Origin: a virus
Virus genome (UHGV): UHGV-1468037
Length of the DNA: 21,312 nucleotides
Strand: one strand, 5' to 3'
The notes beneath the pieces were generated by a model. That model ran no database searches. It worked only from the letters and a program-made list of their open reading frames with translations, and was not told the origin of the DNA. Positions within the stretch are counted from its first letter, which is position 1. The number at the start of each line of letters is the position of its first letter. The translations under genes were made by a program, and so were the position numbers. Below are positions 614 through 13,899 of the stretch, piece after piece.

Positions 614-1153
614 ATGAAGAAAGTTTTTCTTTGCGCCATCTTAGCCTCCTTAAGCTATCCGGCTATCGCCTCATCATTGCAGGATCAACTCTCGGCTGTC
701 GCAGAAGCGGAACAGCAAGGTAAAAATGAAGAGCAAAGGCAGCATGACGAATGGGTCGCGGAGCGCAACAGGGAAATCCAGCAAGAGAAGCAACGTCGCG
801 CAAACGCCCAGGCCGCGGCTAATAAAAGAGCGGCAACGGCAGCAGCGAATAAGAAAGCTCGTCAGGATAAACTGGACGCCGAAGCCACTGCGGACAAAAA
901 ACGCGATCAAAGTTATGAAGATGAGCTACGTAGCTTAGAGATTCAGAAGCAAAAACTGGCGCTGGCGAAAGAAGAAGCCCGCGTTAAGCGCGAAAACGAA
1001 TTTATCGATCAGGAACTGAAGCACAAAGCTGCGCAAACCGATGTGGTGCAATCTGAAGCTGACGCAAACAGAAATATGACTGAAGGCGGTCGCGATCTGA
1101 TGAAAAGCGTGGGTAAAGCAGAAGAGAACAAATCGGACAGCTGGTTTAACTAA
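614..1153 (+). CDS. yfgI: Secreted/periplasmic charged coiled-coil protein (YfgI-like)
   Basis: Strong RBS AGGAGG 5 nt upstream of the ATG. N-terminal signal peptide MKKVFLCAILASLSYPAIASS. Highly charged K/E/R/Q/A-rich body. 179 aa, immediately downstream of the yfgH-like gene; symbol is tentative. Confidence 0.65.
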   Translation: MKKVFLCAILASLSYPAIASSLQDQLSAVAEAEQQGKNEEQRQHDEWVAERNREIQQEKQRRANAQAAANKRAATAAANKKARQDKLDAEATADKKRDQSYEDELRSLEIQKQKLALAKEEARVKRENEFIDQELKHKAAQTDVVQSEADANRNMTEGGRDLMKSVGKAEENKSDSWFN

Positions 1154-3575: not shown

Positions 3576-6551
3576 TTACATTGACATTAATATAAACATG
3601 GCTAATTCGTCATAACGAATTCCGTAGCGTCCTCCTGCTTTTTTTACAAGAATCATATCTCCTGTTTTATATTGAGAATAAATTTTCTCACCTGTATCAG
3701 GATCTGTGCTCTCTTCAGTTATCACCTCTTCATCCCATACGTCAGGCCATTCATCGTAACACCAAAAAGCATATTGCTCAGGGTTTAAACCATGCTTTCT
3801 AAGAATATCCCCTACGGTTTGAGCGCCAACGCCAAAATGATACCTGGACGACTCAATTCCTTTGTGATTAATTGAGTCATTAAATTTAAATTTATAGATG
3901 ACTGACTTTATTTCAATAGCGGCATTACGCTCTGCATTAAGAATATCATATCTTGTTTTAAGAGTTTCATCTGACGTATTGATTGACCCGGTTCCTGCAT
4001 AGATAACAGAGCATCTGTTTGATGGCTGTCCAATAGCTTTAACATTATCATCAACAGGAGCTATTTTATTAGCATCTGCCAACCACCAGTCTGTTCCATC
4101 AGCGTGACCGATTCTTACTCTTATCCCACTTCTAATATTTAAACTTCCAGTATTGCTCTGTAAATTACAATCTCCTGACGTTGGTCCAAGCAGTACAGTT
4201 TTACCAACACCACATACTACTCTGGCATTTCCTTTTTGTGATACGAGTCTTGACTCACCTCCTGACTGCTCAGGAAGAGATTTATGGTCTATAAATGCAT
4301 CGCGGGGGTTAAATACACCGTCTCCAGAATTATATCTTCCTCCTGTATAGTTGTTAAATACAGGACCCCAGTCAACGCCATTGCCTTCAGAGCACCCGAC
4401 CATTCTAAGCACTCGAGTATTCCCTGCTGCATATGGTAATGAGCTTGTTGATTGCCGGGAAGCTATCATACGTGCTCCATAACCAATAGCATTACCACCA
4501 TTTATAGTTACATATGCTTGCTGGCTTTCGAAATATGTACTGTAAAAGTTCATATTTCCACAGTCATGCAGATGAATAAGAACATCATCCCATCCCTGAA
4601 TGGTTCCCGCATGTACCTGTACACCGCGAACTGGTTCCCCTGAAACCTCCATACACTCTGATGGCCGGCTGAATGGCTGAGACAGGTATTGCGATGTGGC
4701 AAGCAGATGTGTGTGGTGATACAGGCTGGTAATGTAGCAATCGAAAAATTGCGTTCCCGCCATACCAAAGTTATCTATGTCATTTCGCCGTATAGTAGAA
4801 CCTACTGTTGCCTCAGAAGCGTTAGACACTCCAGTAAATACTAACTTATCACCGGATACGGATAATCCTGAATAAGTGAAATTCCTGCCTCCAGATCTTA
4901 AAACCCCGGACGTTTCGAAGGTGTGGCTTGCTGACCATGGGATTTCGATAGTGCTGGACGTTACCGCTGTAATTCGGAATACATCATGGGCGCGGATCGA
5001 AATACCCTTGAATCCCTGGAATCTACAGTGATAATAGTTTTCATCCTCGCCCTGAGCGGCCAGCGTGCCAGATACAGGAATGTTCGTTTTTAAAAGTGCC
5101 GTCTTGCGCCAGTATCCAACCACCTGCAAATTGCGGTATTCATTGCCAAAAGACGCACGTGACCAAATACCTACATCCCACTCATCGCCAAGACCGGTAT
5201 TTGCAATGTCTTTATAACCATCCAGCCCATTGAAATATGGAACAACACGAAAGTTCTCAAGGCGAACACATCCTGTCTCAGGCATCAATATTGCGGCAGA
5301 GAATGGTTTAAGCGTGGCTCTTGTAGTCCCATTAGCATCACCGTTAGTAAAATCCAATAAATCATATGATGACGCAGGTGCCGTTGTTGTATACGGGTCT
5401 TCGGAAGATGGATTAGAAACCACACCACCACTAACATCCATATTAGAAACACAATCTACAGTATATTTTTTATTTCCTACCCCGTACATCAGGAATGTGG
5501 TCCCTGTGGTAATATCAGGAGCAAATGTTGCAGTATATCCAGAGACCCATTTGCCCACACCAAGACCAATTATCCCACCACCAGAAACAGGTGTTAACGT
5601 ATCCGTTATTACATACGCATTATCAGTACCATAAATAACCTTTCCTGTGTTAATGGCAGCTTGCCACGCGGCCCAGTCTATTGACTGAGATAATGAGTCA
5701 ACAAAAGGATATAAGGATTTTGCTTCAGAAATTGAAGAAAACCTCTCAGATAATGGATGATATTTCCCATCCCCAATTGCTCCGAATTGTTTTACATTTA
5801 AGAAAAGAGCATTGTTTTCATGCTGAGTTATAGTTACAGCCCAGGCAAATGGCTGCCTTACACCAATTAATGCATCACCTTTTCCTTCTCCTGCGCTAGA
5901 TAATTGCAGAAGAACATCTGCGGCACTGCCAGAAGGCACAGGTACACCTATAGGTTTACCATTGACGATACCAATGACAGTTTCTTCCAGTAAATGAACT
6001 GGAGGAAGTGGTTCAATAAAATTATCTGGAACCCGTAATGTCCTGTTAATATTCACATTAACAATATTATCAACATAATTCTTTGTAGCTGCATCTTGAG
6101 GCTTGGAAGGATCGCGCAAATTGCGGATGTAATTATTCAAAGCATCGTAATAGTTTGCCACAAATGATGGTTTGCGCAGCGCCAGGCTAAACCAACTGCG
6201 GACTTGCTGTATCAGCATCGTCAGCTTATCTAACGCGTCTTCATGCACCTCAGCGAAAAACTTTCCCTGATTTCGCAGATCAGTTTCCTGCGTAACCGGT
6301 AGCTCTCGTGATATAGAAATCTGATAACCGTTAGCTAACGCCTTCGACAGAATTACATTACCGCCATTATATCCACCAGCCCCAGTGACAGTGTAATCAG
6401 TATCAAGAGCCAGCACAGCGATATTTTCGTCAAGGTCAACCACCTGTACTGCCAGATCAGATTCCTTGAAAACCCTAAAGGTATACGGAAATGATGTCGT
6501 AACGCCGTTACCTGTGTATTCGTTGTGGTCAACTTCGGTTGAGACCGTCAT
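3576..6551 (-). CDS. Tail fiber/tailspike with conserved N-terminal virion-attachment domain, central probable glycanase region, and C-terminal intramolecular chaperone (peptidase S74-like) domain
   Basis: 991 aa. N-terminus (TGNGVTTSFPYTFRVFKESDLAVQV...EVHEDALDKLT) resembles the conserved N-terminal domain of podovirus tail fibers/tailspikes. C-terminus (IYKFKFND...HFGVGAQTVGDIL...GGRYGIRYDEL) resembles the self-cleaving chaperone domain. GGAG RBS 8 nt upstream of the start. Confidence 0.75.
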   Translation of the reverse strand: MTVSTEVDHNEYTGNGVTTSFPYTFRVFKESDLAVQVVDLDENIAVLALDTDYTVTGAGGYNGGNVILSKALANGYQISISRELPVTQETDLRNQGKFFAEVHEDALDKLTMLIQQVRSWFSLALRKPSFVANYYDALNNYIRNLRDPSKPQDAATKNYVDNIVNVNINRTLRVPDNFIEPLPPVHLLEETVIGIVNGKPIGVPVPSGSAADVLLQLSSAGEGKGDALIGVRQPFAWAVTITQHENNALFLNVKQFGAIGDGKYHPLSERFSSISEAKSLYPFVDSLSQSIDWAAWQAAINTGKVIYGTDNAYVITDTLTPVSGGGIIGLGVGKWVSGYTATFAPDITTGTTFLMYGVGNKKYTVDCVSNMDVSGGVVSNPSSEDPYTTTAPASSYDLLDFTNGDANGTTRATLKPFSAAILMPETGCVRLENFRVVPYFNGLDGYKDIANTGLGDEWDVGIWSRASFGNEYRNLQVVGYWRKTALLKTNIPVSGTLAAQGEDENYYHCRFQGFKGISIRAHDVFRITAVTSSTIEIPWSASHTFETSGVLRSGGRNFTYSGLSVSGDKLVFTGVSNASEATVGSTIRRNDIDNFGMAGTQFFDCYITSLYHHTHLLATSQYLSQPFSRPSECMEVSGEPVRGVQVHAGTIQGWDDVLIHLHDCGNMNFYSTYFESQQAYVTINGGNAIGYGARMIASRQSTSSLPYAAGNTRVLRMVGCSEGNGVDWGPVFNNYTGGRYNSGDGVFNPRDAFIDHKSLPEQSGGESRLVSQKGNARVVCGVGKTVLLGPTSGDCNLQSNTGSLNIRSGIRVRIGHADGTDWWLADANKIAPVDDNVKAIGQPSNRCSVIYAGTGSINTSDETLKTRYDILNAERNAAIEIKSVIYKFKFNDSINHKGIESSRYHFGVGAQTVGDILRKHGLNPEQYAFWCYDEWPDVWDEEVITEESTDPDTGEKIYSQYKTGDMILVKKAGGRYGIRYDELAMFILMSM

Positions 6552-6654
6552 GTTAAATCTCCAGATAGTCGCAGCACCCGTTGCGCCGCATATCCGGTTA
6601 TTCTATTACCTGAAAAACCACATATGGATAGAAATACTGTGAATATGAATAGAT

Positions 6655-6671
6655 ATTACCTTTCGGGTAAT
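6655..6671. promoter_or_regulatory. Dyad motif copy 1 (ATTACC TTTCG GGTAAT)
   Basis: Perfect inverted half-sites TTACC/GGTAA with 5-bp spacer; one of four copies in the island; 76 bp upstream of the 85 aa gene. Confidence 0.5.
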
Positions 6672-6707
6672 TTGCAAAACGTGCTGGATAGCAAACAAAT
6701 TATTTGC

Positions 6708-6727
6708 TACTGTATAAATATACAGTT
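6708..6727. promoter_or_regulatory. LexA box (SOS operator)
   Basis: TACTGTATAAATATACAGTT: perfect CTGT-N8-ACAG with an AT-only spacer; about 20 bp upstream of the 85 aa gene start codon (6747). Confidence 0.75.
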
Positions 6728-6746
6728 ATTGCATGGAGAAGATAAG

Positions 6747-7004
6747 ATGCAGCAGTATCACTATCCACTGGAAGACGGATTTACCGAAAGGATTCACACG
6801 CCGGGAGGCGTCAGGTCACTGGTGGAGGGATCGCACTTGATGAAATTACTCCGGGATCTCGATAAGGATGGATTTAATGTCGATGGCCCACTTGCCGAAC
6901 TGACTGCACTGATTAACTACGTCACCAGCTCACAGATGTCTATGCGGGATCTGCAAACACATCTCGACTATTGTGCCGAACAATTACGAAAACAAACCCG
7001 GTAA
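6747..7004 (+). CDS. Small antirepressor-like protein; standalone paralog of the C-terminal domain of the downstream Ant-like protein
   Basis: 85 aa from ATG 6747 (GGAGA RBS). The upstream part of ORF 6624..7004 is rejected because it contains the LexA box and dyad site. Aligns by eye with the Ant-like C-terminus (LM.LL..L..DG..V.G..AELT ... RD.QTH..Y). Confidence 0.65.
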   Translation: MQQYHYPLEDGFTERIHTPGGVRSLVEGSHLMKLLRDLDKDGFNVDGPLAELTALINYVTSSQMSMRDLQTHLDYCAEQLRKQTR

Positions 7005-7010
7005 ATTTAA

Positions 7011-7028
7011 AGGCCGCAAGAGCGGCCT
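7011..7028. terminator. Bidirectional terminator between convergent genes
   Basis: Stem AGGCCGC / GCGGCCT with loop AAGA, T-rich on the plus side and A-rich before. Overlaps the stop codon of the minus-strand 242 aa gene. Confidence 0.55.
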
Positions 7029-7755
7029 ATCGTTTCGCTTTGTGCTCATCCCAGCACGTTTTGCACCATGCCATTAAGCCGTCCGCATTTTGATTATTAG
7101 GGTAAAAGCTGGTTCGTTTTCTGCGGACATTACAAATTGGGCACCACTTCATATGGCGTGTATTCTTTGGGCCATCGAGACACCTTGCACACCATTTAGT
7201 CAATCCATCTGGATTTTTTGACGATTTCCTGAATTTTTCATATGGAAGGTTTATTCTGCATCGCAAGCACTGCTTGCTACCACTTGAAACTCTGTTAGCT
7301 GATTCTTCTTTTGGCAGCGATACAGAAGGTATTCTTGCTGGCTCTGATATTGCCTGAGGTGCTTTTTTAGATGACTGAGACGATATGTCATCACCAGGGA
7401 ATCTTCCATGATATGCCGGACGCGTTGACACTCCAGGTGGAATCTCAGCTGTAAACGGCTTTGGCTGAATCAGTTGCCTCTCTTTTGCTAACTCCTGCTG
7501 TTTATAATATGTCTGGATTACCGCACTATCATAAGCAGGAGGTGCGGAAATATTAGGCGCATTACCTCCAGTTTTTTGAAACTGAGTAGAGGTGTGTTCT
7601 ATCACCTGTGTACGATTAATCGTTATCTCCCCATCTTCGGTCTTTATCGTTTTGTTATGATTAACGACCGTACGATCAGAGATCTTAGTCTTGTTCTGGT
7701 TGATAACGTAAATAATCACCGCAACCACACCAACAACTATCCAGAAAACTTCCAT
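7027..7755 (-). CDS. Membrane-anchored protein with two C-terminal zinc-ribbon (CxxC-N19/20-WCxxC) motifs; function unknown
   Basis: 242 aa. N-terminal TM helix (VFWIVVGVVAVIIYVI) followed by basic residues. Low-complexity linker. Two repeats: CLRC...WCARC and CPIC...WCKTC, in a basic context. GAGGA RBS. Divergent from the ant-like gene. Confidence 0.7.
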   Translation of the reverse strand: MEVFWIVVGVVAVIIYVINQNKTKISDRTVVNHNKTIKTEDGEITINRTQVIEHTSTQFQKTGGNAPNISAPPAYDSAVIQTYYKQQELAKERQLIQPKPFTAEIPPGVSTRPAYHGRFPGDDISSQSSKKAPQAISEPARIPSVSLPKEESANRVSSGSKQCLRCRINLPYEKFRKSSKNPDGLTKWCARCLDGPKNTRHMKWCPICNVRRKRTSFYPNNQNADGLMAWCKTCWDEHKAKR

Positions 7756-7918: not shown

Positions 7919-8049
7919 GGCACTGGCAAAATCCAGTGCCGGGATTGGCGTCCCGGATTACTACAGAGGCACATATGCCGCATAAGCGGTTTTTTTATGT
8001 GTAAAGCGCACCTATTCTATGGTGGGCTGTGTGGGGGCACCGAAAGGTG
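7919..8049 (+). promoter_or_regulatory. Structured leader upstream of ant-like gene (multiple hairpins including a terminator-like hairpin plus T7 run)
   Basis: Hairpins GGCACTGG/CCAGTGCC (7919-7940) and CCGGGA/TCCCGG (7939-7956) overlap and are mutually exclusive. CCGC-ATAA-GCGG followed by TTTTTTT (7978-7996). GCACC-GAAA-GGTGC (8037-8049). Confidence 0.4.
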
Positions 8050-8149
8050 CGCCGGGTCCTTTGTAGCCGGTTACGCCAACCCTGCACAGTTCACCACCAA
8101 CCGATTGGCGTCGGTAGTGGTGATTAACCTAACTACAAAGGTGATCACT

Positions 8150-8836
8150 ATGACTGCTAACGTAACCCCATCTGTTTTTCATTTTGAATCAGAAGCAACC
8201 ATTCGAGCCATTGTTATTGATGGAAATCCTTGGTTTGTTGCCAAAGACGTTATTAAAGCTCTTCAACTGACAAACCCCACTATGTCAATAAAATCTCTTG
8301 ATGATGATGAAAGGGCTAAATTTAACTTAGGCCGTCAAGGCGAAACCAATATTATCAACGAGTCAGGCCTCTACACACTGATCCTCCGCTGCCGCGACGC
8401 AGTGACACCAGGCACTATCCCCTACCGCTTTCGCAAATGGGTTACAGGTGAGGTTCTTCCTCAGATCCGCCGCACCGGAAGCTACATTAAAAACTCGCTC
8501 CCGCAGGAAGAGCGCATAAAGATGGTTGCCGACCAGGTAGCCAACGCCACGGCGTCAGCAGTAATGCAGGCGATGAAGATAGAGAACAAAACCTACAGTG
8601 CCCCACTGAAGCCAGGCTACCGCAGTCTGATTCATTCGCCGTCGGGTGTTCTCGGCCTGACGGAGAACTCATTGCTGATGAATCTGCTGAATCAGTTGCA
8701 GGACGACGGGCATGATGTATCGGGCGCGGCGGCGGAACTGACCACCATGTTCTGCTACATCGTCGGTGTGAGCAAATGCCTGCGTGATATCCAGACGCAC
8801 GCGGAGTACATCAACGACAAGGCAGGGTTCTTCTGA
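8150..8836 (+). CDS. Antirepressor-like protein with N-terminal BRO-N domain and C-terminal antirepressor-type domain
   Basis: 228 aa from ATG 8150 (AAGG 8 nt upstream). N-terminus matches the BRO-N pattern (IDGNPWFVAKDV...INESGLYTLIL...FRKWVTGEVLPQIRRTGSY). The longer ORF from 7997 would include the hairpin leader and lacks an RBS. Confidence 0.75.
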   Translation: MTANVTPSVFHFESEATIRAIVIDGNPWFVAKDVIKALQLTNPTMSIKSLDDDERAKFNLGRQGETNIINESGLYTLILRCRDAVTPGTIPYRFRKWVTGEVLPQIRRTGSYIKNSLPQEERIKMVADQVANATASAVMQAMKIENKTYSAPLKPGYRSLIHSPSGVLGLTENSLLMNLLNQLQDDGHDVSGAAAELTTMFCYIVGVSKCLRDIQTHAEYINDKAGFF

Positions 8837-9124: not shown

Positions 9125-9565
9125 TTGAAGTTTAACATTAGAATATCTAATAGTTTTCTAAATGGGGAAAGCAACACCCCTTTCGCTGTAGACGGACCTT
9201 TCCTTACTGACGATGAAATAAAAATCATACAAAGGTTTTTAGAAGATGTTGCCAATGGAAGGGCGCTTGTTGGAAAAAACAAGCCATCGTGGGTTGATGA
9301 TAACCATGATAAAATTCCCGGCTCAGACAATTATGAGCAAGAGAATTATTGGCATTATCATTGTGGGCCAACATGGTATCCAAACACATTTAAGAATTAT
9401 ACCATTAACTTAAATTTCAACCCTGGCGGAATGCATTCTAATGAATGCATTCATTATGCAAAAAATGATAATGAAATTGTCGTTGTTGGATTTTCAAGAG
9501 AACACATACCTTTCCTTTCATCAGATGGAAACGACAATCCGCTTTTTTATGATGAAGAAGAATAG
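9125..9565 (+). CDS. Hypothetical protein (146 aa) with acidic C-terminus, unknown function
   Basis: TTG start with AGGAG 6 nt upstream; 20 nt after the stop of the 55 aa gene, so probably an operon. Strongly AT-rich codon usage. No signal peptide. Followed by a strong terminator. Confidence 0.6.
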   Translation: MKFNIRISNSFLNGESNTPFAVDGPFLTDDEIKIIQRFLEDVANGRALVGKNKPSWVDDNHDKIPGSDNYEQENYWHYHCGPTWYPNTFKNYTINLNFNPGGMHSNECIHYAKNDNEIVVVGFSREHIPFLSSDGNDNPLFYDEEE

Positions 9566-9588
9566 CCCGCGGCGCGGGCTTTTTTGTG
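9564..9588 (+). terminator. Rho-independent terminator after the 146 aa gene
   Basis: Stem AGCCCGC / GCGGGCT with a 3-nt loop, followed by TTTTT. Confidence 0.75.
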
Positions 9589-9625
9589 TCTGCGGATTCC
9601 CACCCAGGCGGCGGTGGCATTCGTT

Positions 9626-9650
9626 AAAAACAAGGCCGCGAAAGCGGCCT
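9626..9650 (-). terminator. Rho-independent terminator after the 283 aa minus-strand gene
   Basis: Stem AGGCCGC / GCGGCCT with loop GAAA; the plus-strand A-run (9626-9630) gives a T-run on the minus strand. Same stem sequence as the hairpin at 7011-7028. Confidence 0.6.
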
Positions 9651-9656
9651 GTTTGA

Positions 9657-10508
9657 TCACTGTGCAGTTTTCGCTGATCGATTTTCAGCTCTAAATTCAA
9701 GAACCGTTTCAATATTTCTTTCCTTCAGCATATCAATAACATTTTTATTCATTTGACTATCACTGGTTAATAACTGGTAAACGTTGCTTCTCTCTTTATC
9801 AGAGTTTTCTTTAACAGCTGCTTTGCATGCCAAATGCTTATTGAAATTTTCTACATCGCTAGTACAGGAATTTACGGCTGCTGATGAAATATCAGACGCT
9901 GAAGAAACACCGTCATCCAAACGTTTTATAGCATTTTCTATACATGAGTTAAGGGAATAAACGACAACTGAGCGATACCCTTCAGACGCACACCATTCTA
10001 AATTTCTTGAAGGATCGAGTGGTTTTACTTCGCTGGATTGAATTAACTTGTCAAAAACTGACTTATATTCAATCTGTTTTTTATCTATAGCCCATACTTC
10101 AGTAGCTGATTTATAATTCCCCGTATGCCTATTAACATCAAATCCATGTTTTATAAGCAAATCTGCCCATGAAAGATTTATTGATTCATTGTTATGAGGC
10201 CATTTTCCTGTCAGAACCGCCCCCATAGACCCCATATATCCGCCATATGATGGTATAGCACCATGGCTCAGTAACTTCTCTGCAACCACAGGGCAATTAA
10301 TTACATAAGAGGCGTAAAGCCCATTCCATAAAGCCCCTCTATAGTAATCGCCACGATTAGGTTCTTTTAAGTCGATAGCCTTTGATAATTGTTCGCACGT
10401 TTTGCATGCATCAAAGTTATCCTTATTGCATTGCAATGAACTGGCAGCTGTAGGATTTACAGAGACTATTGAAAGCACTATGCCAAAAAACAAATTTATT
10501 TTTTTCAT
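9657..10508 (-). CDS. Secreted cysteine-rich protein (283 aa), unknown function; accessory (moron) gene
   Basis: Sec-type signal peptide MKKINLFFGIVLSIVSVNPTAAS. Many Cys in the mature part. AT-rich codon usage unlike the neighbouring virion genes. Start codon 1 nt after the stop of the 1129 aa gene, so likely translationally coupled. Confidence 0.7.
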   Translation of the reverse strand: MKKINLFFGIVLSIVSVNPTAASSLQCNKDNFDACKTCEQLSKAIDLKEPNRGDYYRGALWNGLYASYVINCPVVAEKLLSHGAIPSYGGYMGSMGAVLTGKWPHNNESINLSWADLLIKHGFDVNRHTGNYKSATEVWAIDKKQIEYKSVFDKLIQSSEVKPLDPSRNLEWCASEGYRSVVVYSLNSCIENAIKRLDDGVSSASDISSAAVNSCTSDVENFNKHLACKAAVKENSDKERSNVYQLLTSDSQMNKNVIDMLKERNIETVLEFRAENRSAKTAQ

Positions 10509-10509
10509 C

Positions 10510-13500
10510 CTATTTCATCTGCTCTTCAACTTTATTTAGTAATGGTGATATCGCCCACAGATTCTGAAAAGGTAGCATTTTACGGACAGCGTGGGTTTGC
10601 TGGCTGTCAAATTCTCCGTTAAGTACACCATTTGCAACCGTCGCGGCATCACCGCCAAGATCAAAGGTAGGACCAAGTAAAGCACCAATAGCATTACGAC
10701 TCTGAAACCTTGATACCGGAGGCGCACCAAACATCGCGCCAAGACCAAACCTACCGCCGCTTATGTTCTCAACGGTATTCAGCGGCTCAGAGAGCCAGCC
10801 AAGCATTCCGCCCCGGTCGATCCCCTCTTTCACAAGGTTATTCCAGCTGTAGTCGATATCGCGACCGCTTAACTTCTGTTTCATCATATAGACCATTGAG
10901 CCAAGCGCAATCGTGCCAAGCGCACCAAGATAGAATGCAGCATCGCCCTGCTGGATACCAGATACCAGCACCCTGTTATGCTGTGCGAAGATAAACGTTT
11001 TGAACTGCGTGATCATCTTCCAGCCTTCTTTACTAAAAAACAGCGGTGTATCACCTACGCCAGGCGTTACAATCACTGAGTCTACATCTTTCAGCACTGC
11101 AGACTGGAAAATCTCTCTAGCGAAACGGTCATCCCACAGATGACTATGCCCGGTTAACAGCCCGTCCATATCCTCTCCGTGCTTCCCGAATTGCTCCCCG
11201 ATTCGGCGCAGAACATCTTCATTGATGCCGACCTGTGCCATCTTCCGCATTTCACTTTTGGAGAGCGTGCCACCAGCAGAAACTTGGCGAGCCGCGTCAA
11301 GTATCCTCGACTGCACTATCATCCCAGACCATGATTTAAGTGCGCTGTTCCACTGATTCATCAGCGTCCAGTTACCGAATTTCTGCGTCATCCAGTTCAG
11401 ACCTCGCTCAGCGGCGCTTCTCCGGCTATAGGGGTCAGTAAGATCCGCTATAGCCTTTGTACGCGTAGACAGGACATAATCAAGCCCAACTGCCATTTCT
11501 CGCAAATCCCTGGTTGCAATTTTCACTGAGTCCATATTTTTAAGCATGCTTACCATTGGTCCGAGAGATTTTCTCAGGCCATGCTGCATCATCGGTCGCA
11601 TCAGATCAGTTGCAGCGGAGACAGTCATTCCACCAAGCAAACGGAGGAAGTTAATATTCCTAGCAACTCGCCCGGCACGAACAAAGAAACTGCGTGGATC
11701 TTGAGGTGCACCGTAAGTACCAAGCAGTCGATCACGCATAGCCGTAATATCCCTAATATCAGCCTCCCGTTGCTTCTCAAGAACTGCACGTCGTTTAGGT
11801 GTTTTAGCCTCTTTTATTAGCCGGGTATATTCCTCACTAACCTGACGGATTTGCTCCCCCATATCTTTACGGCCAAACTGCGCAGTCAGCTCAATTTCTG
11901 GTGCCACCTGCCGGAGATAACTTTCCATGATGTAGTTAACATCTGATTCAAGAAAATCTTCTATACGCTCATCAGGAATAAGCAGCGTTCTGCTTTTAGT
12001 GAAACCAGCCCGACCAACGAGTCTCTCTGGGATAATATCGGCTGGTACAAGCCCGGAAGGTGCGCCTATTATTTTATTCACGATCTCGTCAGCAGCGTCC
12101 TCTGCTTCCTCTCGGGATAGAGGCTCCATCTGCTTCAGTGCTCGCTCGCGGCTTGCATTCAGCCTTGTGGTTGAATTTGCCCGTTTTTGCAGTCGGCGAA
12201 GCTCAGAACGATATTTCCGTGGATTATCCAGCAACTCCATATGGCGCTGATAGACAGGAAGCTCACTCTTTGCCTGCGCTATATCATCAAGGCGTGTTTT
12301 AAGGTCAGAGCTTTCTTTCATCATTCTTGCCTGAAGTTTTTCTGATGAAGTCTCGGCCAACTCTTTTTCTATTCTTGTAAGACGCGCCTGTGTGTCAGTC
12401 TCCTGAGATATAAGCTTATTTCGTTTATCCAGTTCTTCCATGAGTAGAATTTTTTTACCAGACCATTTCTCCGCTTCAGCGATTTCACTAGCGAGAGCAT
12501 CAGCGCGCGGTGCTGATTCCTCTGCAGTTTTTAGCAATGAATTTATCTTTTCAATTCGCTGACCTGCTTTGTCAGCACCTTTGGCACTAATCCCTTGTAT
12601 CCAGTTGGCAATTCGCCCTCTGAATTCAGTGCGGTCGGAAAGTATCTTATCGAACTTATAAATGCGGGGAAGATAACTCTTCGCCGTCACGACATCGATA
12701 TCCTCAGGAAGGATCCCCAATTCCTGCATACGGGCTTTTGTGGTCTCAAAAATGGGGCGGATTCTGGCGGCTGCTTGTGAAACCTCAGGAATATCACTCT
12801 GATCACCACGGCGCATAGCCATGCCAACAGCTTCATTGAAATCAATAAAGTTCATCCTCTTCACGCCGCGGGCGCTGACAGATTTGCTGTACTGCTGGTA
12901 AGCATCACGAGTAGCTTCCATCTGCTTATAAAGCATGGCGTCGTATTGCTTAATCTTAGTCTCGACTGCCGTAAACGTAGCCAACCCCTCATCATTTTTG
13001 GCGAAGAAATAGTTATTTTCGGCAAGCTGCTGGTTAATCTGACGGGAGACAAGAGATGGTGATTGCGCCAAGCGGCCAGCAGGAGTGACACTCAACGTTT
13101 TGTTAGCAAGTCCAAGTCCAGCGAGCTGTTCCTGATCGAGTGTGGTATTGAAAACCTGAGCTGCACCAATGCTTTGAGGAGAATCCATACCTCGCAAATG
13201 ATTACCTACTGAGTTAACCACTGCCTCGCGCGCGCTAGGTCCAGCAAGTAGCTGTGCACCAGCACCAAGGATCCCACCAACGAGAGCATCAACAACAACG
13301 TTCGATACGCTCTCCATCGGTGAGCGAGCTTCCTGAGTGGCCTGTAATGCGGCTTCTGATACTCCCCCACCAGCAGCATTCGCCAGGGCAAAACGCCCTG
13401 CCGTCTCAGCAATACTTCCTCCACGCGCTACCGCCCCTACAGGGATGAACATTGCAGCCACATTAACCGGGTCTATCATTCCCATTGCTAAGCTTGAAAT

Positions 13501-13899
13501 AGTACCAGCACCACCCATTTCAGATAGATATTCTCTATCTGTTCTTTGCTTATCGATTCGATGTTTAATTGCCATTGTTTCTTCATGCGAACCGGAGTTG
13601 ATAAACGAATCTGCAAAATCTTCATAGCCTTTAATATCTGCTGCATCGTTATCAAATGGGTTATATCCTTCAACCCTGTCAAACTGACTGAAAGGAGCAC
13701 TGGCAATAAAGCTACCCAGCGTGTTATCTATACGAAATGCTGCTTGTCTAGACCTTTGAACGCGTTGATCACTGGTAAATGGGTTCACAGCAGAAAGCAA
13801 AGAAGGTGTTTCCATATAGAAATTACTGTCATCAGGTGCTGCTATTTGCTGAATATCCTCGCCAAGCAACTCTTTAGGATCCTGTTCATATATCGGCAT
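10510..13899 (-). CDS. Large internal virion/ejection protein (T7 gp16-position analog)
   Basis: 1129 aa. Last and largest of four consecutive overlapping genes following the tail-tube genes. Gly/Ala-rich and coiled-coil segments. No recognisable enzymatic motif seen by eye. Confidence 0.6.
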   Translation of the reverse strand: MPIYEQDPKELLGEDIQQIAAPDDSNFYMETPSLLSAVNPFTSDQRVQRSRQAAFRIDNTLGSFIASAPFSQFDRVEGYNPFDNDAADIKGYEDFADSFINSGSHEETMAIKHRIDKQRTDREYLSEMGGAGTISSLAMGMIDPVNVAAMFIPVGAVARGGSIAETAGRFALANAAGGGVSEAALQATQEARSPMESVSNVVVDALVGGILGAGAQLLAGPSAREAVVNSVGNHLRGMDSPQSIGAAQVFNTTLDQEQLAGLGLANKTLSVTPAGRLAQSPSLVSRQINQQLAENNYFFAKNDEGLATFTAVETKIKQYDAMLYKQMEATRDAYQQYSKSVSARGVKRMNFIDFNEAVGMAMRRGDQSDIPEVSQAAARIRPIFETTKARMQELGILPEDIDVVTAKSYLPRIYKFDKILSDRTEFRGRIANWIQGISAKGADKAGQRIEKINSLLKTAEESAPRADALASEIAEAEKWSGKKILLMEELDKRNKLISQETDTQARLTRIEKELAETSSEKLQARMMKESSDLKTRLDDIAQAKSELPVYQRHMELLDNPRKYRSELRRLQKRANSTTRLNASRERALKQMEPLSREEAEDAADEIVNKIIGAPSGLVPADIIPERLVGRAGFTKSRTLLIPDERIEDFLESDVNYIMESYLRQVAPEIELTAQFGRKDMGEQIRQVSEEYTRLIKEAKTPKRRAVLEKQREADIRDITAMRDRLLGTYGAPQDPRSFFVRAGRVARNINFLRLLGGMTVSAATDLMRPMMQHGLRKSLGPMVSMLKNMDSVKIATRDLREMAVGLDYVLSTRTKAIADLTDPYSRRSAAERGLNWMTQKFGNWTLMNQWNSALKSWSGMIVQSRILDAARQVSAGGTLSKSEMRKMAQVGINEDVLRRIGEQFGKHGEDMDGLLTGHSHLWDDRFAREIFQSAVLKDVDSVIVTPGVGDTPLFFSKEGWKMITQFKTFIFAQHNRVLVSGIQQGDAAFYLGALGTIALGSMVYMMKQKLSGRDIDYSWNNLVKEGIDRGGMLGWLSEPLNTVENISGGRFGLGAMFGAPPVSRFQSRNAIGALLGPTFDLGGDAATVANGVLNGEFDSQQTHAVRKMLPFQNLWAISPLLNKVEEQMK

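Follow-up and report, generated by a model that had tools for sequence, protein, structure and literature searches.

Spackle of phage T4, a periplasmic protein that inhibits the gp5 tail lysozyme of incoming phage and blocks superinfection (PMC7677548), Bd3460 of Bdellovibrio, a periplasmic ankyrin protein of self-protection that acts as a hydrolase inhibitor (PMC4686830), and Rap1a, a periplasmic neutraliser of a type VI secretion system (T6SS) peptidoglycan hydrolase (PMC3533786, PMC3852654), are among the described proteins closest to the subject of this study. A fourth is ANKp of the Ankyphages, encoded by an auxiliary phage gene, which combines ankyrin repeats with an N-terminal signal peptide and lacks a transmembrane domain (Jahn et al., 10.1101/608950). 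Here we analyse a protein of 283 amino acids (aa) encoded in the virus genome UHGV-1468037, of which a stretch of 21,312 nucleotides (nt), hereafter the window, was available. The element is a Uetakevirus-like (epsilon15/phiV10-type) temperate podovirus found as a prophage in Escherichia coli, and the 283-aa gene stands directly after the gene of its last ejection protein, a gp16-like internal virion protein of 1129 aa.

With ANKp, the 283-aa protein shares the features just listed, as far as prediction goes, and it is likewise not expected in the virion. However, ANKp matches the Pfam Ank models, whereas the 283-aa protein does not; the latter has invariant cysteines and an extra C-terminal helical domain, and an enterobacterium takes the place of the sponge symbiont as host. 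Spackle resembles it as a phage-encoded, Sec-exported, small helical protein (export of the 283-aa protein being predicted), but Spackle is the product of an early gene while the 283-aa gene ends a late operon, and the two differ in architecture, with no sequence or fold match. No sequence relationship to Bd3460 was detectable, and Bd3460 lacks both the cysteine pattern and the C-terminal domain. The Rap1a/Tai4-type T6SS immunity proteins (PF18602) are also periplasmic, small and helical, and neutralise peptidoglycan hydrolases (PMC3533786, PMC3852654), but they share with the 283-aa protein a genomic slot only, through one family member described below, and the 283-aa protein itself has no PF18602 match. 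Known already are both secreted ankyrin proteins of phages and periplasmic proteins of exclusion or immunity; new here is an uncharacterised family, missed by the Pfam Ank models, in which a predicted Cys-braced ankyrin domain is joined to an undescribed helical domain.

The cargo slot behind the last ejection-protein gene

Judged from genome comparison, the 283-aa gene is a swappable accessory ('moron'-type) cargo in a hypervariable slot that reaches from the end of the gp16-like gene to the operon terminator. The accessory status follows from the presence of unrelated genes next to gp16 ends that are 93–100% identical. In the Klebsiella phages ST512-KPC3phi13.3 and Kp4865-1, whose gp16 is 93% identical, the slot holds an unrelated 204-aa protein without a signal peptide, followed by the same terminator hairpin; in E. 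coli strain 2/0, a cassette encoding proteins of 149 and 146 aa takes the place of the 283-aa gene; and in TL-2011b no co-oriented gene lies directly past the gp16 homologue. A wider census started from 78 IMG/VR contigs with a related gp16 C-terminus (78–100% identity), of which 74 had enough flanking sequence and an open reading frame (ORF) in the slot. At least 12 unrelated cargo families were found in these 74 viral contigs, namely the 283-aa ankyrin protein (26 loci), the 204-aa protein without a signal peptide (14 loci), a 146-aa secreted protein on the opposite strand together with a 149-aa protein (10 loci) and, in the remainder, assorted secreted proteins, lipoproteins and small membrane proteins. 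A heuristic based on hydropathy and the lipobox predicts secretion or a lipoprotein for about nine of the families, which fill ~52 of the 74 loci; applied to a stretch of phage EC.W1-9, it picks out 4 of 47 genes, which allows a rough comparison. We found no description of this slot as a hotspot for exported cargo in the literature searched.

Among complete E. coli genomes with the same gp16 end, 106 of 120 carry the 283-aa gene, and the family is present in ~2% of complete E. coli genomes, including the reference strains IHE3034 and APEC O18 of extraintestinal (ExPEC) and avian (APEC) pathogenic E. coli. Homologues occur in five genera (Escherichia, Klebsiella, Serratia, Morganella and Providencia), and a tblastn search of plasmids gave no match to the 283-aa protein. 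A first, sequence-only reading of this DNA had named as its counter-case a standard virion component present in all relatives; presence across related prophages, compared as that reading had advised, proved variable, and close relatives carry other genes in the slot.

All homologues examined (Morganella, Serratia, an environmental contig and divergent viral contigs) stand directly after a gp16-like gene of 937–1157 aa; the 283-aa gene always accompanies the gp14/15/16 ejection module, with differing tailspikes and lysis cassettes. This synteny, kept from E. coli to Morganella, and the translational coupling of the gene directly after gp16 would fit a part of the virion or a chaperone that assists the assembly of the ejection proteins. 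We consider such a role most improbable. The signal peptide would take the protein out of the cytoplasm, the site of head assembly; phages with 93–100% identical gp16 ends lack the gene and carry unrelated ones instead; TL-2011b has none in this position; and the composition of the gene is foreign-like. Moreover, the sole PHROG match of the protein is phrog_6118 (function unknown, E 1e-200), with no homology to T7-type gp14/15/16 ejection proteins. A virion component was thus rejected on the ground that the gene is missing from close relatives.

The right border of the slot is marked by a strong terminator, which ends the late virion operon. A 53-nt stretch that includes its hairpin (window 9600–9652) is common to most of 483 matching E. 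coli records (481 genomes), and in most of these records high identity with the window is limited to it. Its identity is 88.7–100% among the matches listed, and its spread is far wider than the 106 gene carriers; the counterpart usually overlaps the final part of an opposite-strand gene for a 53-aa 'transmembrane anchored' secreted protein. Recombination that exchanges the cargo is likely anchored in this stretch.

AT-rich accessory genes for envelope proteins, such as lambda lom and bor and the Cor-type morons, lie among or after the late structural genes of temperate phages and are dispensable for growth. The 283-aa gene is likewise an AT-rich accessory gene after late structural genes; it is replaced in near-identical relatives, and its GC content at third codon positions (GC3) is 0.29 against 0.42–0.51 in the virion genes. 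However, classical morons carry their own promoter and none was found here by consensus scan, and Lom and Bor are outer-membrane proteins or lipoproteins, whereas the 283-aa protein is predicted to be periplasmic and soluble.

The 1129-aa gene ends in GTTGAAGAGCAGATGAAATAG, a single G comes next and the ATG of the 283-aa gene follows (Table 1), in agreement with the 1-nt distance reported before; the range given at that time, 9626–10512, does cover the ORF but extends over the stop codon of the 1129-aa gene and the terminator hairpin (9650–9633). The ribosome-binding site is as weak as had been supposed, since the best anti-Shine-Dalgarno duplex in the 22 nt before the gene reaches −2.2 kcal/mol, compared with −6.2 to −10.9 for seven other prophage genes, and no usable, properly spaced Shine-Dalgarno (SD) sequence was found within the 22 nt preceding the ORF start. 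The upstream virion genes are linked by one-base overlaps (13899, 16646, 17224, 17688 and 20153), and the 1-nt junction beside them places the 283-aa gene fittingly in a tightly coupled late operon. A consensus scan of the minus strand from 10509 to 11200, which a weak or embedded promoter could escape, found no sigma-70-like promoter. Expression with the late virion operon, also foreseen by the sequence-only reading, is therefore suggested by the place of the gene between the last ejection-protein gene and the terminator and by the missing promoter and SD. The spacers of the Serratia and Morganella homologues measure 11 and 31 nt, each with its own SD, so the 1-nt coupling is specific to the E. 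coli/Klebsiella lineage.

The gene has a GC content of 37.0% and a GC3 of 28.9%, compared with 46.7–50.3% and 41.9–51.3% in the five upstream virion genes. The AT-rich, foreign-like composition already pointed out thus holds and recurs in the Morganella and Serratia homologues, where cargo gene and gp16 stand at 35% vs 52% and 40% vs 53.5% GC. Purifying selection is indicated by a dN/dS of ~0.15 against Klebsiella-type alleles, and on this comparison, together with the homologues in five genera, the ORF is a real gene.

Signal peptide and domain architecture

The predicted protein starts with MKK, followed by a 14-residue hydrophobic core, INLFFGIVLSIVSV, and NPTAAS. This is the layout of a Sec signal peptide, as the sequence-only reading had it, with a charged n-region, an h-region and small residues at −3/−1. 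The region has a hydropathy heuristic score of 2.94 and a predicted local distance difference test (pLDDT) value <50 in both structure models. In an alignment of 14 homologues from the five genera, which share 39–89% identity, the n-h-c layout with small residues at −3/−1 before the first conserved Cys is kept in 14 of 14 while the sequence itself varies, and sequence conservation starts at the first cysteine. Eight cysteines (C27, C35, C38, C72, C173, C189, C215 and C228) are invariant down to 39% identity. They make up 2.8% of the protein, against 0–0.7% in the virion genes; 'Cys-rich', the label used earlier, is right as to the invariant cysteines and a modest overstatement at this content. 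The signal architecture and the invariant cysteines are consistent with export by Sec. A lipoprotein was rejected: the first Cys is reached through S-L-Q-C, with Q at −1, hence no lipobox.

AlphaFold2, run on a 51-sequence alignment, gave a model with a mean pLDDT of 91.6. The N-terminal domain is predicted to consist of stacked helix-turn-helix repeats with beta-hairpin or loop fingers, that is, an ankyrin fold, and its profile matches the sequences of solved structures, namely the designed ankyrin-like RBL4 (E 3e-4) and Ankyrin-1 (E 2e-3). Two motifs, KLLSHGAIPS and DLLIKHGFDVN, resemble the ankyrin signature (LL..GA.pN). Pfam PF00023 is matched by 10 of the 51 family members (best E 7.3e-5), and fewer match Ank_2 to Ank_5. 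The 283-aa protein itself has no match in Pfam, including the Ank models (PF00023, PF12796 and related), at E ≤ 0.1 or E ≤ 1, and none in NCBIfam; its assignment as a divergent ankyrin member is thus transitive, through those family members that do match. The likeness to ankyrins, put forward as speculation in the earlier reading, is real by the predicted fold, these profile matches and the Pfam matches within the family.

The C-terminal domain is a confidently predicted helical bundle with the motif C-x(9)-DDG-x-S-x-ASDI-x(8)-C, for which neither Pfam nor a profile search of Protein Data Bank (PDB) sequences yielded a relative. With the full-length profile, the search of PDB sequences returned just non-significant coiled-coil and DARPin matches, and a fold search of the viral structures in BFVD gave weak ankyrin matches to giant-virus and poxvirus proteins and no phage relative. 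An exhaustive profile search resolved two independent modules: residues ~6–155 match stand-alone proteins of ~160–170 aa and residues ~160–272 match stand-alone proteins of ~110–150 aa. The stand-alone members listed for both domains have N-terminal hydrophobic, signal-like leaders.

Stand-alone homologues of the N-terminal domain (~163 aa, with a signal peptide), found in marine alphaproteobacterial genomes and a Tara contig (L013–L017), keep a conserved place directly downstream of a small cytochrome c gene and divergent from an EF-hand NOX-like ferric reductase gene. This gene order hints at a redox-linked periplasmic role for the marine branch. Extended to the phage protein, it would imply that the CxxC ankyrin domain handles haem or thiols or guards against oxidative stress, like the periplasmic ankyrin partners of catalases. 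The three marine alphaproteobacterial contexts, the invariance of C35-x-x-C38 and the conserved Trp/His motif KWPHN speak for this idea. Nevertheless, we regard it as very unlikely for the 283-aa protein: the marine homologues share only 24–34% identity and have no C-terminal domain, CKTC does not conform to the CxxCH haem motif, the four cysteines of the domain are more simply explained as two structural disulfides, and neither the phage setting nor the nature of the remaining cargos points to redox chemistry.

Candidate functions of the protein

Other cargos of the slot and stand-alone homologues provide further clues. A hidden Markov model (HMM) built from the stand-alone C-domain proteins detects this domain in other slot cargos, with the lipoprotein L104 at E 3.9e-10 (32 bits) and weaker matches in L123, L083/L096 and L112, the E-values referring to the 74-sequence set; the ankyrin domain, in turn, is confined among slot cargos to the 283-aa family. 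In IMG/VR contig 3300006946_000023, the first gene past the gp16-like stop (L133) encodes a predicted secreted protein of 140 aa that matches PF18602, the Rap1a T6SS immunity family, at E 7.4e-8 (33.2 bits, against a gathering cut-off of 27.7), and may be a prophage-borne orphan T6SS immunity gene.

A profile scan of genome contigs for the C-terminal domain yielded three loci. One stand-alone C-domain gene (L023:2382–2843), in a phage fragment, lies directly downstream of a CI-type repressor gene (helix-turn-helix and S24 peptidase) and divergent from a Cro-like gene, a position which, read from gene order, is that of a lysogen-expressed gene. A second (L137:4788–5258) is found in a P4-like island of Thauera sinica, between integrase and AlpA/Prim-Pol (primase) genes. 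Another stand-alone C-domain gene follows a lipoprotein gene beside a tailspike gene. By these contexts, the stand-alone C-domain genes are accessory cargo of other mobile elements. Two further leads were dropped, namely Cor homology of one alternative cargo, where the match spanned the lipoprotein signal peptide only, and an LprI-like domain in a Methylotenera fusion protein, which had no Pfam match.

We tentatively propose that the 283-aa protein binds, in the periplasm and without enzymatic activity, an incoming protein that attacks the envelope and neutralises it, and would thus be an immunity or superinfection-exclusion factor, a reading that we find plausible and hold with reserve. The layout of the sequence suggests that the gene would be transcribed by read-through of the late operon and, in the E. 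coli/Klebsiella lineage, translated by termination-reinitiation coupling. The precursor would be exported by Sec, leaving a mature protein of ~260 aa, each domain of which would be braced by its invariant cysteines, probably through disulfides formed in the periplasm. Rap1a/Tai4-type immunity proteins are disulfide-bonded as well. Possible targets are the ejection proteins by which a related superinfecting phage cleaves peptidoglycan or forms a channel, or the peptidoglycan-targeting toxin of a competitor, and the protein would act after the manner of T4 Spackle, of the Bdellovibrio ankyrin immunity protein Bd3460 or of the T6SS immunity proteins. Circumstantial support comes from the Rap1a-family protein L133 in the same slot, the recurrence of the C-terminal domain in exported cargos, the lysogen-expressed stand-alone C-domain gene and the constant company of the ejection module.

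Several observations weigh against this proposal. Since no promoter of its own was found, the protein is possibly made only late in lytic growth, and such timing suits exclusion or host immunity poorly, barring unseen lysogenic transcription. In the 74 viral contigs, cargo alleles shuffle independently of the gp16 variant, so they give no indication of co-evolving with a matching ejection protein. The 283-aa protein has no sequence or fold similarity to Spackle or Rap1a and no PADLOC match at E ≤ 0.1, the marine homologues of its N-terminal domain adjoin small cytochrome c and NOX-like reductase genes and not toxins or hydrolases, and the export calls for the cargo families come from a heuristic of our own.

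The same slot and expression signals would also suit a late periplasmic helper of the phage's own lytic cycle, which would mask or alter the envelope so that progeny are not lost on debris, or tune lysis timing via the periplasmic parts of holin, spanin or endolysin. Co-expression with the late genes, itself deduced from gene order, and the lipoproteins among many alternative cargos are in keeping with this, and T5 Llp offers a precedent (10.64898/2026.03.26.714494). However, the tailspikes of the carriers are unrelated (S74-chaperone type, GH28-like, endosialidase, beta-helix and GDSL lipase), as are their lysis cassettes, which makes a receptor- or holin-specific partner unlikely, and close relatives do without the gene; we therefore think a lytic helper unlikely. 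Of the roles raised as candidates by the sequence-only reading, namely modification of the envelope or receptor and action on the host, receptor or O-antigen specificity is also rendered less likely by the unrelated tailspikes; receptor- or O-antigen-specific factors were rejected on this ground, and holin-specific factors on account of the lysis cassettes.

The ankyrin domain raises a further alternative, that of a secreted effector directed against a eukaryotic host as with ANKp, which would be made at a high level from the late operon, exported, released by lysis or vesicles in the manner of Stx, and dampen phagocytosis or inflammation to the benefit of surviving lysogens. The pairing of signal peptide with ankyrin domain is that of ANKp, a phage product that reduced macrophage phagocytosis (10.1101/608950), the place in the late operon without a promoter of its own fits release on lysis, and many of the listed carriers are clinical isolates from humans or animals (a urinary tract isolate, the canine isolate PYO2, APEC O18 and IHE3034). 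Still, a Sec signal alone reaches the periplasm only, and the generic ankyrin fold was the only likeness found to effectors known to target eukaryotes. Furthermore, the nearest relatives of both domains are stand-alone periplasmic-type proteins of free-living or environmental bacteria and mobile elements, not of host-associated effector contexts, and the slot also holds lipoproteins and a T6SS immunity protein, whose place of action is the bacterial envelope. On balance, an effector of this type seems improbable.

Returning to periplasmic neutralisation, a broader and more doubtful extension can be formulated for the slot as a whole. The position after the last ejection-protein gene of Uetakevirus-like prophages could be a dedicated, fast-exchanging locus for periplasmic 'shield' proteins, in which the ankyrin-plus-helical fusion and the Cys-braced 'DDGxSPASDIA' helical domain would represent a new neutraliser family against peptidoglycan-attacking or channel-forming proteins.

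The host element, its other genes and implications

E. coli chromosomes match the region at 99.5% identity, and the 283-aa protein has a counterpart of 100% identity in Escherichia phage EC.W1-9 as well as in a cluster of 299 member sequences; the RefSeq accession of the protein appears in no paper searched. The relatives whose gp16 is 93% identical belong by classification to Uetakevirus, and the more distant TL-2011b is likewise treated as such (PMC10408124). Upstream, the window encodes a core protein of the T7 gp14 family, a protein of 915 aa whose residues ~243–395 form a transglycosylase-like region, and the 1129-aa internal virion protein; neighbours annotated in close relatives include a capsid staple protein (gene name gp10) and the Bbp16 cement protein. 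Table 1 gives the coordinates of the features of the slot.

Table 1. Features of the 283-aa gene, its product and the borders of the slot (window coordinates).
Feature	Coordinates	Strand	Remarks
Coding sequence of the predicted exported two-domain protein of 283 aa	9657..10508	-	stop TGA 9657-9659; ORF call
Junction: TAG of the gp16-like gene (10510-10512), 1-nt spacer (10509), then ATG from 10508	10509..10512	-	
Intrinsic terminator hairpin AGGCCGCTTTCGCGGCCT with T-run	9633..9650	-	6 nt past the TGA stop
Upstream gene of the 1129-aa gp16-like internal virion (ejection) protein; left border of the cargo slot	10510..13899	-	phrog_342
Predicted Sec signal peptide (signal peptidase I), residues 1 to ~23, MKKINLFFGIVLSIVSVNPTAAS	10440..10508	-	n-h-c layout
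Divergent ankyrin-repeat domain (predicted), residues ~27-160	10029..10430	-	invariant C27, C35, C38 (CxxC), C72; motifs GDYYRGALWNGLY, KWPHN
C-terminal helical domain (predicted), residues ~165-283	9660..10016	-	invariant C173, C189, C215, C228; motif LDDGVSSASDIS; pLDDT >90

The prophage in strain 2013C-3033 abuts yfgH and yfgI. At the start of the window, the ORFs 80–598 and 614–1153 (plus strand) match these host genes in lengths and order, so the window appears to span the junction between prophage and chromosome just before the lysis genes. The tailspike (3576–6551, minus strand) has an S74 intramolecular-chaperone end here, and GH28-like, endosialidase, beta-helix or GDSL lipase types are found in similar prophages; such exchange among otherwise similar prophages is the usual receptor-binding modularity of the group.

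Between the tailspike and the slot lie several further genes. A 126-aa protein (6624–7004, plus strand) and a 279-aa BRO-N/antirepressor-like protein (7997–8836, plus strand) have a C-terminal domain in common (phrog_450, phrog_15539), which indicates duplication of the antirepressor C-terminal module. A 242-aa protein (7027–7755, minus strand) combines an N-terminal hydrophobic segment with C-terminal Cys-rich zinc-ribbon-like repeats; it matches phrog_6762, with weak PHROG matches to endonuclease VII/HNH and Lar-like restriction alleviation proteins, and is an unusual predicted membrane-anchored zinc-finger protein of the accessory region. Converging on the 283-aa gene is a 146-aa AT-rich gene (9125–9565, plus strand; GC 35.6%; phrog_5954, function unknown), without a Pfam match, that is followed by its own hairpin at 9564–9580, terminator-like on both strands, and is another accessory gene of the variable region.

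The 283-aa family has neither a Pfam family nor an assigned function, though it is found in prophages of E. coli, Klebsiella, Serratia, Morganella and Providencia. A slot with a conserved gene end and terminator, filled mostly with exported cargo, is a handy place to seek envelope-acting phage accessory functions. Should the protein turn out to act on eukaryotic hosts as an ankyrin effector, prophages would carry in its gene a candidate virulence factor. Should it prove to serve exclusion or immunity, the short list of periplasmic superinfection-exclusion or immunity proteins would gain an ankyrin-based class and a new helical domain, with a bearing on phage-therapy host range in these pathogens. 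And if the slot as a whole does serve 'shield' proteins, the lysogen or infected cell would be protected from proteins that reach it from outside, such as phage ejection proteins and T6SS effectors, and orphan genes for immunity or exclusion would be carried by prophages from one member of the Enterobacterales to another.

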